From the IMG/VR virus record IMGVR_UViG_2541047748_000013: 41,069 nucleotides of DNA. The stretch is one strand, 5' to 3'. The translations under genes and the position numbers were made by a program. Shown here piece after piece: positions 6,514-34,827 of this stretch. Within the stretch, counting starts at the first letter, position 1; every line of letters starts with the position of its first letter. This stretch comes from a virus (lineage: Duplodnaviria; Heunggongvirae; Uroviricota; Caudoviricetes). The notes beneath the pieces are model-generated. The model was not told the DNA's origin. It saw only the letters and a program-made list of their open reading frames with translations, and ran no database searches.

Positions 6514-6617
6514 GTTAAATCTCCAGATAGTCGCAGCACCCGTTGCGCCGCATATCTGGTTATTCTATTACCTGAAAAACCACATATGGATAGAAAGACT
6601 GTAAATACGAATAGATA

Positions 6618-6632
6618 TTACCTTTCAGGTAA
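6618..6632. promoter_or_regulatory. TTACC-N5-GGTAA dyad (putative phage repressor operator) upstream of the antirepressor island
   Basis: Perfect dyad TTACCTTTCAGGTAA; identical copy at 25793-25807. Confidence 0.5.
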
Positions 6633-6671
6633 TTTGCAAAACGTGCTGGATAGCAAACAAATTATTTGCTA

Positions 6672-6687
6672 CTGTATAAATATACAG
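6672..6687. promoter_or_regulatory. LexA (SOS) box
   Basis: CTGTATAAATATACAG matches CTGT-N8-ACAG with AT-rich spacer; overlaps a TATAAAT -10-like element 22 nt upstream of the 6709 start codon. Confidence 0.7.
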
Positions 6688-6708
6688 TTATTGCATGGAG
6701 AAGATAAG

Positions 6709-6966
6709 ATGCAGCAGTATCACTATCCACTGGAAGACGGATTTACCGAAAGGATTCACACGCCGGGAGGCGTCAGGTCACTGGTGGAGGGATCGCACTT
6801 GATGAAATTACTCCGGGATCTCGATAAGGATGGATTTAATGTCGATGGCCCACTTGCCGAACTGACTGCACTGATTAACTACGTCACCAGCTCACAGATG
6901 TCTATGCAGGATCTGCAAACACATCTCGACTATTGTGCCGAACAATTACGAAAACAAACCAGATAA
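6709..6966 (+). CDS. Small protein homologous to the C-terminal domain of the downstream antirepressor
   Basis: 86 aa; GGAG RBS 8 nt upstream; aligns by eye with the Ant C-terminus (LMKLLRDLDKDGFNVDGPLAELT / LMNLLNQLQEDGHDVSGAAAELT; QDLQTHLDY / RDIQTHAEY). Confidence 0.6.
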   Translation: MQQYHYPLEDGFTERIHTPGGVRSLVEGSHLMKLLRDLDKDGFNVDGPLAELTALINYVTSSQMSMQDLQTHLDYCAEQLRKQTR

Positions 6967-6997
6967 GATTTGAAATTACCAATAGGAGTGCTTATAT

Positions 6998-7012
6998 TTA
7001 CCTTTGCGGTAA
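6998..7012. promoter_or_regulatory. TTACC-N5-GGTAA dyad inside a larger hairpin between the ant-like gene and ant
   Basis: TTACCTTTGCGGTAA flanked by inverted repeat AGGAGTGC...GCACTCCT. Confidence 0.45.
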
Positions 7013-7103
7013 ATTTACATCGCACTCCTCTTGTGCCATAGTAATCGGGCACTGGCAAAATCCAGTGCCGGGATTGGCGTCCCGGGTTACTAAGTGGCGC
7101 ATA

Positions 7104-7125
7104 CCACGCCAGACGTGGTTTTTTT
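7104..7125 (+). terminator. Intrinsic terminator upstream of ant
   Basis: CCACG ccaga CGTGG followed by T7 run. Confidence 0.55.
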
Positions 7126-7281
7126 ATGCGTTAAGCACAGCTATATCCGAATTATGGTGGGCTGGGCAGGGGTCCGAAAGGACGCCGGTACCACTTAGGC
7201 CGGTACGCCAACCTTGTCCAGTTCACCACCAGTAATTGGCGTTGCGGTGGTGATTAAAATCACTAAGTGGAGATAACCACC

Positions 7282-7992
7282 ATGGCTAATGCTCAAACTG
7301 CCATCTTCAAATTTGAATCTGTTAACCCTATCCGTTCCATCATTATCGATGGCCAACCATGGTTTGTAGCCCAAGACGTTTGTAGTGCGCTGCGTATCCA
7401 AAACGTCACCCAAGCACTTGAAAAACTGGATGATGATGAAAGGTCTATGTTCAACATAGGGCATGAACATCGTGCAATTTTTGACAGCCGAGTAAAAGAG
7501 ATCAACATTATCTCCGAGTCAGGCCTCTACACACTGATCCTCCGCTGCCGCGACGCAGTGACACCAGGCACTATCCCCTACCGCTTTCGTAAATGGGTTA
7601 CAGGTGAGGTTCTTCCTCAGATCCGCCGCACCGGAAGCTACATTAAAAACTCGCTCCCGCAGGAAGAACGCATAAAGATGGTTGCCGACCAGGTAGCCAA
7701 CGCCACAGCATCAGCAGTAATGCAGGCGATGAAGATAGAGAACAAAACCTACAGCGCCCCGCTGAAGCCCGGCTACCGCAGTTTGATTCACTCGCCGTCG
7801 GGTGTTCTCGGCCTGACGGAGAACTCACTGCTGATGAATTTGCTGAACCAGTTACAGGAAGACGGGCATGACGTATCGGGCGCGGCGGCGGAGCTGACCA
7901 CCATGTTCTGCTACATCGTCGGTGTGAGCAAATGCCTGCGTGATATCCAGACCCACGCGGAGTACATCAACGACAAGGCAGGGTTCTTCTGA
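7282..7992 (+). CDS. ant: Antirepressor, Bro-N/KilA-N N-terminal domain with Ant-type C-terminal domain
   Basis: Bro-N-like N-terminus (FVAQDVCSAL...SGLYTLILRCRD); GGAG RBS 9 nt upstream of ATG at 7282. Confidence 0.8.
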   Translation: MANAQTAIFKFESVNPIRSIIIDGQPWFVAQDVCSALRIQNVTQALEKLDDDERSMFNIGHEHRAIFDSRVKEINIISESGLYTLILRCRDAVTPGTIPYRFRKWVTGEVLPQIRRTGSYIKNSLPQEERIKMVADQVANATASAVMQAMKIENKTYSAPLKPGYRSLIHSPSGVLGLTENSLLMNLLNQLQEDGHDVSGAAAELTTMFCYIVGVSKCLRDIQTHAEYINDKAGFF

Positions 7993-8077: not shown

Positions 8078-8092
8078 TTACCCGATTGGTAA
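8078..8092. promoter_or_regulatory. TTACC-N5-GGTAA dyad overlapping the promoter region of the moron operon
   Basis: TTACCCGATTGGTAA 22 nt upstream of the 8114 start; TAAAAT -10-like hexamer abuts it. Confidence 0.45.
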
Positions 8093-8113: not shown

Positions 8114-8440
8114 ATGAGCAGAAGATATGTCAAGGAGCTGGCTATAGAGTCTGGCACCCCTTTGGGTATCGTTCCTGGCTCCAACTATGCCAAGGCTTTA
8201 AACCGAGACTCTGTCGTCAAAGTTATATCAAGAGACATGAATATGGTCGGAGACGATCTCAGACGGTCAGAAAATCGTGTTTATGCTGAATATATAGTAA
8301 AGAACGGAAAAAAAATTGCAGCGCCTGCTGGCGGAAAATGGGCAATAGTGACAGGGAAAAACTCAAATGCAAGAGGAAAACCAGAAGCTAAAGGAATGTC
8401 CTTCGACAAATATGCAAAAATCTATTGGGCAACCAAGTGA
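8114..8440 (+). CDS. Hypothetical protein (moron operon gene 1)
   Basis: ATG with GAGG RBS 5-6 nt upstream; 109 aa basic protein, no family recognised. Confidence 0.45.
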   Translation: MSRRYVKELAIESGTPLGIVPGSNYAKALNRDSVVKVISRDMNMVGDDLRRSENRVYAEYIVKNGKKIAAPAGGKWAIVTGKNSNARGKPEAKGMSFDKYAKIYWATK

Positions 8441-8915
8441 TAACGAAGAAACTGAGTTCGAGGAAGTTGAGGAAGGGCTAAGTAACGAGATCATTCAACA
8501 CCCAGATGCCTTCACAAGAGTTCTTGATCGCCCTGAAATTCAGGAGATAGTTGTCGCTCACCATGCGTTTCAGGGTCCGCTTCCTCCCCCCTATCTGCTT
8601 CGCGGGTATCAGGATATTTTACCTGATGCCCCCGAACGCATCTTCCAGCTGACGGAGAAGGAGTTTGCTCACCGCCAGAAAATGGAGGAAAAGGCACTTG
8701 ACGGGGCTATTAATAGAGATAAACGTGGGCAGTGGTTTGGCCTGAGTGCAACTATTTTTACAGTAGCTTGTGCAACATTATTAGGTTTAACAGGTCATGA
8801 AGTTCTAGCTGGCACAGTGATCGGTACAGTTGTTGCAGTGGCTGGTATTTTCGTTCTTAGACAAAAACCAAGCATCAAGAAGAAATCTGAAGACAACAAA
8901 CCTGAAGAAAAGTAA
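8367..8915 (+). CDS. DUF2335-like membrane protein (moron operon gene 2)
   Basis: Acidic N-terminus, HHAFQGPLPPPYLL motif, two C-terminal hydrophobic helices; overlaps previous ORF, start uncertain (8367 or 8412). Confidence 0.5.
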   Translation: MQEENQKLKECPSTNMQKSIGQPSDNEETEFEEVEEGLSNEIIQHPDAFTRVLDRPEIQEIVVAHHAFQGPLPPPYLLRGYQDILPDAPERIFQLTEKEFAHRQKMEEKALDGAINRDKRGQWFGLSATIFTVACATLLGLTGHEVLAGTVIGTVVAVAGIFVLRQKPSIKKKSEDNKPEEK

Positions 8916-8936
8916 GCCCGCGCTGCGGGCTTTTTT
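8916..8936 (+). terminator. Intrinsic terminator after the moron operon
   Basis: GCCCGC gct GCGGGC followed by T6. Confidence 0.6.
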
Positions 8937-21758: not shown

Positions 21759-21809
21759 CTTCTTTCTCCATTAGTGGGTCTGTTACGACCCACAGGTTAA
21801 TAACAGGCG

Positions 21810-25770: not shown

Positions 25771-25807
25771 TTGACATTTAACGCACAAATTATTACCTTT
25801 CAGGTAA
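25771..25807 (+). promoter_or_regulatory. Putative plus-strand promoter (TTGACA) with TTACC-N5-GGTAA dyad upstream of tRNA-Arg
   Basis: TTGACA at 25771-25776; dyad TTACCTTTCAGGTAA at 25793-25807 identical to the 6618 site. Confidence 0.4.
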
Positions 25808-26129: not shown

Positions 26130-26206
26130 GTGGCATTAGCTCAGTTGGACAGAGCAACCGCCTTCTAAGCGGTTGGTCGCAGGTTCGAATCCTGCATGCC
26201 ACGCCA
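26130..26206 (+). tRNA. tRNA-Arg (anticodon UCU)
   Basis: Manual cloverleaf: acceptor GTGGCAT/ATGCCAC, D-stem GCTC/GAGC, anticodon stem ACCGC/GCGGT with loop CTTCTAA, T-arm GCAGG-TTCGAAT-CCTGC, discriminator G, encoded CCA. Confidence 0.9.
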
Positions 26207-33400: not shown

Positions 33401-33575
33401 TCTTTAGTGCACAAGCAAATTCATTACGATGGCGGTTGGCGCTATTCATTGCACATTCAACACATGTTCCGTTCAGAACATACCTTTCAGAGAGATGGCC
33501 GTGACGGCACCGCTTTCCTGTGAAATAGCGATTTAACCCGGCTTTTGCGGCCTCCATTCTGGTTACTATCTTCAA
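33363..33575 (-). CDS. Small Cys/His-rich protein in the cII position
   Basis: 64-70 aa, CRHGH...CVEC cluster; overlaps O-like start; weak RBS; low support. Confidence 0.3.
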   Translation of the reverse strand: MKIVTRMEAAKAGLNRYFTGKRCRHGHLSERYVLNGTCVECAMNSANRHRNEFACALKSARGETYGKQLD

Positions 33576-33653
33576 TTTTTCCGCCCCTTTTTGTTATTGA
33601 TATTGGCTATTTTGCACAATTGGAAAATTTGATCAACCAGATTTGGTTTTTTA

Positions 33654-33668
33654 TTACCTTTGAGGTAC
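33654..33668. promoter_or_regulatory. TTACC-N5-GGTAC dyad between cro-like and downstream genes
   Basis: TTACCTTTGAGGTAC, imperfect right arm. Confidence 0.4.
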
Positions 33669-33670
33669 GA

Positions 33671-33701
33671 ATAGATATGAAAAGACCGCCGGGTGGCGGT
33701 C
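33671..33701 (-). terminator. Weak intrinsic terminator after the cro-like gene (tR1-like position)
   Basis: GACCGCC-ACCC-GGCGGTC hairpin followed by TTTTCAT on the minus strand. Confidence 0.3.
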
Positions 33702-33723: not shown

Positions 33724-33954
33724 TCATGAGTAGAAGAAGTATGCCAGTTCTGCTTTTGAGCGCAGCCATTGTCTTGTTTTACAGGCTTTAAAAAGCCCAT
33801 TCATCAATACCTTACCTGGCATTTTGCGCTTACCTGTTAAGTGAGTCTGGATATAGTGACTCGTCGTTCCGGCTTCCTGTGCGAAGGCTTCACGCTCATC
33901 CGGAGTAAGTGCAAGCCAGTGCTTTTTGAAATCGAAATGTCCGTTATCGCTCAT
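33724..33954 (-). CDS. Cro-like HTH regulator
   Basis: 76 aa; HTH-like segment (FAQEAGTTSHYIQTHLTGKRKMP); divergent from the repressor gene across an operator-rich 154-bp region. Confidence 0.6.
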   Translation of the reverse strand: MSDNGHFDFKKHWLALTPDEREAFAQEAGTTSHYIQTHLTGKRKMPGKVLMNGLFKACKTRQWLRSKAELAYFFYS

Positions 33955-33990: not shown

Positions 33991-34053
33991 TCACCCATAA
34001 GGTAACAAAAATCAAGGATAGTTACCTATGGGGTGCATTTACCTGTTGGGTAA
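33991..34053. promoter_or_regulatory. Tripartite operator in the divergent repressor/cro promoter region
   Basis: Three dyads: TCACCCATAAGGTAA (33991-34005), TTACCTATGGGGTGC (34022-34036), TTACCTGTTGGGTAA (34039-34053). Confidence 0.55.
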
Positions 34054-34108: not shown

Positions 34109-34693
34109 ATGAAAAGTATCCAGGACGTCCGCAGGCAAAATCTCAACGACTTGATCGACCGTGAATTCAATGGTGTTCAGACGCGGATGGCTGAAAAACT
34201 TGGAACTCAGGCAAATCTGGTAAACCGCTGGGCTCTTGGCAAGAAGGTTATCGGCGACCAGGTTGCACGAAAAATTGAAGCTGCCGCCAATAAACCCCGT
34301 AACTGGCTTGATATTGATCGCTCGCTTTCTCAGGAGGGTTTTCAGCCTGTCGGCCCGAGCGATATAGGTCAGCTGGCGGCTCACAACCTGGAACGCTGGA
34401 TGAGCGAAAGCCGCGACCTTTCAACGCAGGGAAAACTACACCGCGCATCCGGCGTCGCCCAGGTGACAATCAGCCGCCTGTTAAACAATGAGGTCAGCGT
34501 TTCCATTTCCACCCTGGAGAATGTTGCATCCGCATTCGGGCGTCACGGCTATGAATTACTGATTCACCCGCACGACCCTGCGACCATCAACTATGATCGC
34601 TCGCGCTACGCATTGTTACCCGAAACCGAGAAAGCAAAGATCGAAAGTTACATTGAATTTGTCATCAACCAGAACGAAAAAAACAAACAATAA
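34109..34693 (+). CDS. CI-type repressor with tandem HTH domains and no S24 peptidase domain
   Basis: 194 aa; two XRE-like HTH segments; no Ala-Gly/Ser-Lys autocleavage domain visible; short leader. Confidence 0.6.
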   Translation: MKSIQDVRRQNLNDLIDREFNGVQTRMAEKLGTQANLVNRWALGKKVIGDQVARKIEAAANKPRNWLDIDRSLSQEGFQPVGPSDIGQLAAHNLERWMSESRDLSTQGKLHRASGVAQVTISRLLNNEVSVSISTLENVASAFGRHGYELLIHPHDPATINYDRSRYALLPETEKAKIESYIEFVINQNEKNKQ

Positions 34694-34750: not shown

Positions 34751-34765
34751 TTACCTAACGGGTAA
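34751..34765. promoter_or_regulatory. TTACC-N5-GGTAA dyad upstream of early-left promoter
   Basis: TTACCTAACGGGTAA. Confidence 0.5.
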
Positions 34766-34784
34766 TTTTTTTAACTCATATCTA

Positions 34785-34812
34785 TTGACATCAAACCAGA
34801 TACGCATAATCA
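34785..34812 (+). promoter_or_regulatory. Putative early-left (PL-like) promoter
   Basis: TTGACA at 34785-34790, CATAAT-like -10 around 34805-34812, bracketed by two operator dyads. Confidence 0.45.
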
Positions 34813-34827
34813 TTACCTCAACGGTAA
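34813..34827. promoter_or_regulatory. TTACC-N5-GGTAA dyad just downstream of the PL-like -10
   Basis: TTACCTCAACGGTAA. Confidence 0.5.

Follow-up and report, generated by a model that had tools for sequence, protein, structure and literature searches.

Why a prophage should keep, side by side, two genes that share one protein domain, and which of the two would set off its induction, is the question raised by positions 6,618–7,992 of IMG/VR virus record IMGVR_UViG_2541047748_000013 (Caudoviricetes), of which the entire 41,069-nucleotide stretch was analyzed and is hereafter called the window. The first gene encodes a small protein behind a LexA box, and the second a longer protein with a Bro-N domain. 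The locus is read here as a tandem of two modules of known kinds, in which the small gene, ant, corresponds to the antirepressor gene of the Salmonella phage SPC32H and the Bro-N protein is a second antirepressor of the same repressor (Rep), independent of the SOS response; a probability of about 0.7 is given to this reading. Judged by its sequence, the phage is an epsilon15/phiV10-like podovirus of Escherichia coli, genus Uetakevirus, and the region matches the Escherichia phages HEMP4 (97.7%), vB_EcoP_ZX5, TL-2011b, and phiV10. The first module and the repressor gene comprise the following features.

6618–6632, no strand assigned: palindrome TTACCTTTCAGGTAA, a candidate Rep/Cro operator between the tailspike gene and ant, kept in phiV10-type phages, SPC32H, Tyrion, and Klebsiella phages.
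6647–6675, plus strand: putative ant promoter with -35 TGGATA (6647–6652), a 17-nucleotide spacer, and extended -10 TGcTACTGT (6667–6675), formed of invariant columns in a six-phage alignment.
6670–6689, no strand assigned: LexA (SOS) box TACTGTATAAATATACAGTT, kept in relatives and overlapping the putative -10 and start of transcription.
6709–6966, plus strand: ant, an 85-amino-acid antirepressor and SPC32H Ant ortholog, from its match to 5D50 chain E, 88% identity to the SPC32H gene, and the same genome position.
34109–34693, plus strand: rep, a non-S24 repressor, SPC32H Rep homolog (5D50 chain A, E = 4e-42; 42% identity) and presumed Ant target.

The small open reading frame (ORF) is real, as the initial annotation had held, and extends from an ATG at 6709 to a stop at 6966 with GGAG placed 8 nucleotides 5' of the start; its product has 85 amino acids, the 86 first reported having counted the stop codon. 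In a search of the PDB, a single entry was matched over residues 2–84, namely 5D50 chain E ("Anti-repressor protein", 86 amino acids; E = 4.1e-47), and tblastn aligned it at 88% identity with the gene that the SPC32H and SPC32N records call ant. In Pfam, the small protein returned only a sub-threshold match to DUF724, which was dismissed as noise; the SPC32H Ant domain has no Pfam family and stands in PHROGs as phrog_450, "unknown function". The gene is likewise annotated as hypothetical in the ZX5 record, and among the matches listed every genome row of RefSeq labels the small Ant hypothetical. A longer ORF from an ATG at 6586 (6586–6966; 126–127 amino acids) was considered and rejected, as its extension spans the promoter and the LexA box and the crystallized Ant has 86 residues. 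This 126–127-residue version is common in databases and gene callers (e.g., P0036, a cluster of 833 sequences), where the extension is probably a gene-calling artifact.

The LexA box, whose core CTGTATAAATATACAG occupies 6672–6687, had been called near-consensus, and it stands up to scrutiny: the 20-mer agrees with the consensus TACTGTATATATATACAGTA at 18 of 20 positions and is the sole site in the window at three or fewer mismatches, against 0.00 expected from shuffled sequences. The bare core CTGT-N8-ACAG occurs three times against 0.64 expected and is not significant alone; the occurrences at 21780 and 26322 were rejected as LexA sites, since they are without the AT-rich spacer and flanks and fit chance. 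The alignment behind the promoter, box, and RNA-module columns comprises six phages, and the box, the small ORF, and their layout were found again in eight related phages or prophages. A consensus promoter scan called no ant promoter, so the one proposed is based on conservation only; because TGGATA-17-TGcTACTGT overlaps the box, LexA would cover the -10 and start site of this putative promoter, provided that it binds in this phage as presumed. The SPC32H box and that of the window align column for column and lie at the same distance from the start codon. Moreover, in the public records, SPC32H and SPC32N differ at two positions in the 5.2-kb locus, one of which turns CTGTATGTTTATACAG into CTGTATGTTTATAAAG, replacing C by A in the ACAG half of the orthologous LexA box. 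Kim and Ryu reportedly found that SPC32N, two bases off SPC32H, makes Ant constitutively owing to a LexA-box mutation.

The presumed target is of a matching kind. The initial annotation had described the repressor as having two helix-turn-helix (HTH) domains and no S24 domain; Pfam agrees, with HTH_3 at residues 106–147, a weak YdaS-type HTH at 21–61, and no match to Peptidase_S24 at E ≤ 0.1. The PDB returned 5D50 chain A and 5D4Z ("Repressor"; E = 4e-42), and the C-terminal domain aligns with the tetramerization and Ant-binding domain of SPC32H Rep (PDB 5D4Z). According to papers that cite the structural work, that domain of SPC32H Rep serves both tetramerization and Ant binding, and Ant acts as a tetramer that splits the Rep tetramer. 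In Salmonella prophages, as stated by later authors citing Kim & Ryu (2013), LexA self-cleavage permits Ant synthesis, and Ant inhibits the repressor by protein–protein contact. That LexA would hold ant off and Ant would inactivate a non-cleavable Rep is shown by homology, in support of the earlier proposal of an SOS-controlled antirepressor acting on a non-cleavable repressor. Because of its 88% identity to the Ant crystallized with Rep (5D50), the accompanying Rep homolog, and the SPC32N box change, the small protein is, by homology, a canonical and already characterized antirepressor, neither a fragment nor a modulator; of the two roles suggested for it at first, that of the true SOS-induced repressor-binding module is the one borne out. 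As a separate observation, Ant is 88% and its presumed partner Rep only 42% identical to the SPC32H counterparts, an unexplained asymmetry for a complex-forming pair. The second module follows directly.

6970–7042, plus strand: promoter region of the RNA module, with TTGAAA-17-TATATT (6970–6998), palindrome TTACCTTTGCGGTAA (6998–7012), and TTTACA-17-CATAGT (7014–7042); from a promoter scan, kept in six phages.
7036–7125, plus strand: a1b1 target and IsrK-type small RNA, including an intrinsic terminator at 7103–7125 and the b1 loop at 7074–7080; from Rfam and a terminator scan.
7150–7233, plus strand: C4-type antisense RNA with specificity loop b' (ACGCCAA) at 7205–7211; from Rfam and covariation.
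7236–7242, plus strand: b2 target (TTGGCGT), which pairs with b' and is placed in the Bro-N leader 40 nucleotides 5' of the ATG.
7282–7992, plus strand: second antirepressor, with Bro-N (residues 17–112, nucleotides 7330–7617) and an SPC32H-Ant-like domain (residues 155–231, nucleotides 7744–7974); from Pfam and a PDB match.

The Bro-N assignment made at the outset is confirmed by Pfam (PF02498, E = 9.6e-20, residues 17–112 of 236), and so is the homology of the small protein to the C-terminal ~75 residues of its neighbor (42% identity to residues 155–228, E = 9e-16). However, the view first proposed, in which the small protein was a stand-alone C-domain beside a full-length Ant, has to be inverted: residues 155–231 match all of SPC32H Ant (5D50 chain E, E = 1.2e-13), and the Bro-N protein is the derived form, with an Ant-like domain at its C-terminus. 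No Pfam family, and hence no ANT/KilA-C domain, was found anywhere in its C-terminal half, and the window scan found no LexA box ahead of its gene. The C-terminal ~150 residues are identical to ORF4 of the near-identical phage ZX5, the overexpression of which cut lysogens from 10^9 to 10^6 and lowered rep messenger RNA by 75% (Li et al. 2022); the Bro-N protein was taken as an antirepressor in that study, in which LexA, SPC32H, and the small Ant are unmentioned.

The Ant domain behaves as a module that is used repeatedly. When 1.84 billion representative proteins were searched exhaustively by profile, only 68 with the domain were found, mostly stand-alone proteins of 80–95 amino acids; in the longer ones, it is C-terminal and stands behind Bro-N, AntA, Phage_pRha, or ORF6N. 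The N-terminal domains were checked by Pfam in ten of the 68, nine of which have one of antirepressor type, and two of the longer fusions occupy the equivalent slot in uetakevirus-like prophages, 3' of a small ant with a LexA box and of an isrK-C4 module. Natural hybrids of 84 amino acids also occur, in which the N-terminal half of Ant is joined to the C-terminal half of the fusion's C-domain, as expected from recombination between paralogs; these lie behind a LexA-like box, without isrK, C4, or an N-terminal domain. Across both paralogs, 19 positions are invariant, and the Ant and C-domain of Klebsiella phages have an identical central segment, DGHDVSGAAAE. The reuse behind different N-terminal domains, the hybrids, and the shared Klebsiella segment suggest that Ant and the C-domain do the same job.

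The manner in which the Bro-N gene would be controlled can be read from the RNA elements that precede it. Rfam places isrK (RF01394) at 7049–7125 with 67.7 bits (gathering score 50), C4 (RF01695) at 7150–7233 with 66 bits (gathering score 45), and c4-a1b1 (RF03163) at 7036–7088 with 44.1 bits, just under the gathering score of 46.7; the promoter-like TTTACA-17-CATAGT puts the transcription start near 7049, the first base of the isrK model. The C4 loop b' is complementary to both b1 and b2. Among the six phages, b1:b' and b':b2 are 100% paired (42 of 42 cells for b2), with both sides changed in four of seven pairs; the covariation score was reached by none of 500 shuffles, and pairing is lost when the partner is shifted by one to three columns. 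Three specificity types (GGCG, GGTC, and GAGA) are found in the six phages, with b', b1, and b2 switching together, and a seventh locus adds one more switch of type. Because the three elements covary, the regulation exerted by the RNA module is under selection. All eight relatives with a fusion gene have both isrK and C4; the fusion genes so preceded include those of phiV10, ZX5, Tyrion, two Klebsiella phages, and two additional prophages. The terminator that had been noted before the Bro-N gene thus exists, at 7103–7125, but is not a plain terminator: by its position and covariance-model match, it is the IsrK terminator and part of a full RNA control module. An upstream ORF of the "ash family"/orf45 type was examined as a coupling device and rejected, because its length is not conserved (14, 15, or 35 codons in relatives, or without an in-frame stop in the aligned segment). 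In ZX5, the "ash family protein" ORF (2164–2277 of locus L002; window equivalent 7155–7199) overlaps C4 and is probably an RNA gene mis-called as a protein.

A further element is common to the two modules and the surroundings of rep. The palindrome TTACC-N5-GGTAA occurs in the window as 10 exact and three one-mismatch copies against 0.58 expected, a roughly 20-fold enrichment, at 6618, 6998, 8078, 25793, 28931, 28949, 31690, 31752, 33654, 33991, 34039, 34751, and 34813. The copies flank rep and precede ant, the RNA module, and ORF 8114, and others lie near the starts of further ORF blocks; sites were matched to identified genes around ant and rep. In SPC32H, 10 exact copies stand at equivalent places, three on either side of rep (34390–34451 and 33528–33680), and in every relative a copy is found at the RNA-module promoter; the copy of the window there, at 6998–7012, follows the -10 of one promoter-like site and precedes the -35 hexamer of the conserved TTTACA-17-CATAGT. 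From this distribution, TTACC-N5-GGTAA would be the immunity (Rep) operator. A full-text literature search for the motif returned nothing relevant. The epsilon15 genome paper reportedly notes a similar inverted repeat. Beyond the two modules, the palindromes form these features.

8078–8092, no strand assigned: third palindrome, TTACCCGATTGGTAA, directly beside promoter-like sites that precede ORF 8114–8440 and the DUF2335 gene at 8367–8915.
33991–34053, no strand assigned: two palindromes in the divergent promoter region between a cro-like gene (33724–33954, minus strand) and rep, corresponding to the three SPC32H sites at 34390–34451.
34751–34827, no strand assigned: two palindromes 3' of rep and upstream of the rightward early operon, corresponding to the SPC32H cluster at 33528–33680.

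Taken together, these parts would work as follows. In the first module (6618–6966), host LexA would sit on the box overlapping the ant promoter until DNA damage removes it; the 85-residue Ant would then be made, bind the non-cleavable Rep (34109–34693), and lift it off its operators. In the second module (6970–7992), the palindrome-flanked promoter would transcribe an IsrK/a1b1 element that ends at the terminator, and read-through transcripts would carry C4, whose loop may pair with b1 upstream and b2 in the leader and so gate translation of the Bro-N protein with its Ant-paralogous C-terminal domain. In a lysogen, the operator, terminator, and C4 would jointly keep this protein silent, and it would be made either once Rep has been titrated, as a latch, or early in infection before Rep accumulates; in this phage, the binding of LexA and of Rep and the time at which the protein is made are presumptive. 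A stronger version of the scheme, which is tentative and has the odds leaning against it, is that uetakeviruses of E. coli, Enterobacter, and Klebsiella run a two-stage latch built on one effector domain. SOS induction would yield Ant, Ant would titrate Rep, and the loss of Rep would release an operator-controlled and IsrK/C4-gated second antirepressor, with TTACC-N5-GGTAA acting as a genus-wide network of Rep operators like the C1 operators of P1 and the Ant fold being portable. If true, the second antirepressor would make induction irreversible or offer an SOS-independent way into lysis, and the fold of SPC32H Ant would serve as a portable "repressor-killing" module placed behind Bro-N, AntA, Rha, and ORF6N DNA-binding domains.

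Several observations weigh against the Bro-N protein being a second antirepressor of Rep in this manner. In phiV10, the Bro-N gene (L001 2280–2959) is frameshifted inside the Ant-like domain and annotated as two ORFs, with ant intact, so that its second antirepressor is probably inactive; in the Salmonella members SPC32H, epsilon15, and SPN1S, the gene is absent and the small Ant stands alone. The gene therefore appears to be accessory and dispensable. The C-domain is only 37–42% identical to the Ant of the same phage, owing to which it may bind a different partner, and the ZX5 ORF4 test used a plasmid-overexpressed glutathione S-transferase (GST) fusion with readouts other than Rep binding. 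Similarly, the palindrome upstream of ant lies ~50–65 bp before the predicted start, off the core promoter, and that of the RNA module is centered near -44 of the conserved promoter, where it could suit an activator as well. The orf45/icd-type coupling ORF, which begins in C4, has only 14 codons in the window and stops inside C4, 84 nucleotides before the Bro-N ATG. Moreover, this phage is known here from its sequence alone.

The low identity between the two domains also counts in favor of the proposal that the Bro-N::Ant-like protein strikes at the repressors of other resident prophages or related superinfecting ones, for cross-induction or anti-immunity, with induction of the phage itself left to the small Ant alone. 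The C-domain has drifted this far from its cognate Ant, while Ant is 88% conserved across genera; some E. coli genomes hold up to three copies of the module; the gene is dispensable in phiV10 and missing from the Salmonella phages; and there is a precedent in FsoA of Fels-1, which answers to the repressor of its phage instead of LexA, plays no part in the induction of Fels-1 itself, and disables the repressor of Gifsy-2. However, overexpressed ZX5 ORF4 cut the lysogeny of ZX5 itself 1000-fold and lowered its own rep transcript, DGHDVSGAAAE is shared by the Klebsiella Ant and C-domain, and the hybrids swap the C-terminal half of Ant for that of the C-domain, which argues for a shared partner. 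A heterologous target is accordingly held to be unlikely as a replacement for the second-antirepressor reading, although the two roles can coexist.

Two other explanations would deny one or the other protein its part in lysis. In the one raised by the initial annotation, the 85-residue protein is not an effector but acts on the Bro-N "full-length Ant", e.g., as a dominant-negative modulator or by forming mixed oligomers with it, which are conceivable given the 19 invariant positions and the tetrameric action of SPC32H Ant. It is nevertheless very improbable, because the protein is orthologous to an Ant crystallized on Rep, the Salmonella phages carry this small Ant with no Bro-N gene for it to modulate, in phiV10 the Bro-N gene is frameshifted while ant is intact, and the C>A change in the LexA box upstream of ant sits in SPC32N, which is reportedly induced constitutively. 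In the other explanation, the Bro-N cassette takes no part in the lysis–lysogeny switch and is carried as a passenger (moron), e.g., a DNA-binding or host-takeover protein whose Ant-like tail serves only for oligomerization. The varying cargo of the post-ant slot in relatives (DUF1902, a YafO toxin, or nothing), the free swapping of N-terminal domains, and the phiV10 frameshift would all fit a passenger; yet the Ant-like domain is kept in this slot behind four N-terminal domains, each time together with isrK and C4, the RNA covariation attests to regulation under selection, ZX5 overexpression gave an anti-lysogeny phenotype, and the same RNA module governs proven antirepressors in P1 and Gifsy-1. 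A mere passenger is thus improbable, and the reading of the Bro-N protein as a second antirepressor of Rep is retained.

The surroundings of the locus are conserved as well. ant is on the plus strand and adjoins a 1039-amino-acid tailspike gene, upstream of the virion genes, both of which are on the minus strand, and this slot (beside the tailspike, in opposite orientation, within the late region) is the same in SPC32H, phiV10, ZX5, Tyrion, and the Klebsiella phages. The same palindrome precedes post-ant cargo in other uetakevirus prophages (L011 2225, L013 4386, L009 10719, and L010 11069), the cargo there being a DUF1902/HicB-like gene, a YafO toxin gene, or an unnamed ORF; such varied genes behind one palindrome suggest that the position after ant is a hotspot for cargo under operator control. 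Behind the third palindrome of the window, on the plus strand, lie 8114–8440 (phrog_10654, unknown function) and 8367–8915, a DUF2335 membrane protein gene (phrog_3996, "moron"), which end at a bidirectional terminator at 8914–8932; in L010, a DUF2335 gene is also found 3' of a Rha::Ant-like gene. Near rep, the divergent minus-strand ORF at 33724–33954 (76 amino acids) matches phrog_35 ("transcriptional repressor") and is likely a Cro-like partner sharing the palindromes at 33991 and 34039. Elsewhere, a tRNA gene lies at 26130–26203 (Rfam, 73.3 bits), where SPC32H annotates tRNA-Arg, with the palindrome site at 25793 nearby.

These assignments bear on prophages that are widespread, as the module is carried by 534 of 5426 complete E. 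coli genomes (approximately one in ten), in some of which it reaches three copies. The transfer of knowledge from SPC32H corrects their annotation, in that the actual induction switch is the small Ant, and it explains the response of these common prophages of pathogenic E. coli to DNA-damaging antibiotics. In addition, the SPC32H Ant domain is recognized as a mobile module, and a shared effector domain with different inputs (LexA on the one hand, operator and IsrK/C4 on the other) provides a tractable system for the integration of SOS and non-SOS signals. The advance is incremental and adds no new principle.

Among the known systems, the Ant–Rep–LexA system of SPC32H (Kim & Ryu 2013, J Virol 87:11775; Kim et al. 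2016, PNAS 113:E2480; PDB 5D50 and 5D4Z) is the nearest to the first module, sharing with the window the genus, the ant slot, the distance of the LexA box, and the upstream palindrome; the novelty claimed for the small gene is withdrawn on this account, since it is the E. coli counterpart of the characterized SPC32H Ant. Unlike the window, SPC32H has no second antirepressor and no isrK/C4, a structural-operon gene following directly after ant, and between the two phages Rep is far more diverged than Ant. Nor is the layout unorthodox, as had been supposed, because a LexA-controlled small antirepressor is the logic of SPC32H, Gifsy, and 186 Tum alike. The same combination of a non-cleavable repressor with a LexA-controlled small antirepressor outside the immunity region is found for 186 Tum, GfoA and GfhA of Gifsy-1/3, and AntC of N15; no sequence relationship to Tum, GfoA, GfhA, or AntC was detected among the 68 proteins of the profile search, ten of them checked by Pfam. 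Kim and Ryu reportedly describe SPC32H Ant as structurally distinct from those other small antirepressors. As for the longer protein, Bro-N/KilA-N-type proteins (PF02498, PF08346, PF09669, and PF10543) likewise join an N-terminal module to a variable C-terminal module, but in contrast to the usual Bro-N proteins the C-terminal module here is an SPC32H Ant domain rather than ANT/KilA-C. Proteins of the Bro-N/KilA-N type with shuffled C-terminal domains are said to have been described by Iyer, Koonin, and Aravind in 2002.

The second module resembles two characterized loci. The isrK-orf45-anrP locus of Gifsy-1 (Hershko-Shalev et al. 2016, PMC4825925) shares with it an IsrK-family small RNA that has a terminator of its own, a structured leader (STnc1160, in the position of C4) reached by read-through, an antirepressor-like gene after that leader, and IsrK loop residues that pair with a downstream element. 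In Gifsy-1, the short IsrK works in trans and enables AnrP, an antirepressor-like protein that induces the prophage, to be translated from the read-through transcript (PMC4825925); by contrast, the orf45 coupling ORF is not conserved here, and no antQ-type output is evident. In the immI region of P1 and P7 (Op51/P51, c4, icd, and ant1/2), a secondary antirepressor similarly stands behind C4 with a1b1 and b2 targets, an operator-like site lies at the operon promoter, and there is a separate small antirepressor (Coi in P1); in P1, the C4 RNA and the C1 operator jointly silence the secondary antirepressor Ant. One relative, L009, even carries an AntA N-terminal domain of the P1/P7 type. Unlike P1 immI, the effector domain here is SPC32H-Ant-like rather than the C-domain of P1 Ant, an icd-like gene is absent, and the small antirepressor is LexA-controlled and paralogous to the large one, whereas Coi and P1 Ant are, to our knowledge, unrelated. 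We also know of no earlier description of two antirepressors with one effector domain paired in this way, of the swapping of N-terminal domains (Bro-N, AntA, Rha, and ORF6N) ahead of an Ant domain, or of a genus-wide palindrome TTACC-N5-GGTAA at each promoter. Both modules are therefore of known kinds, and what is new is modest: their pairing, an effector domain common to both antirepressors, and the putative operator network.

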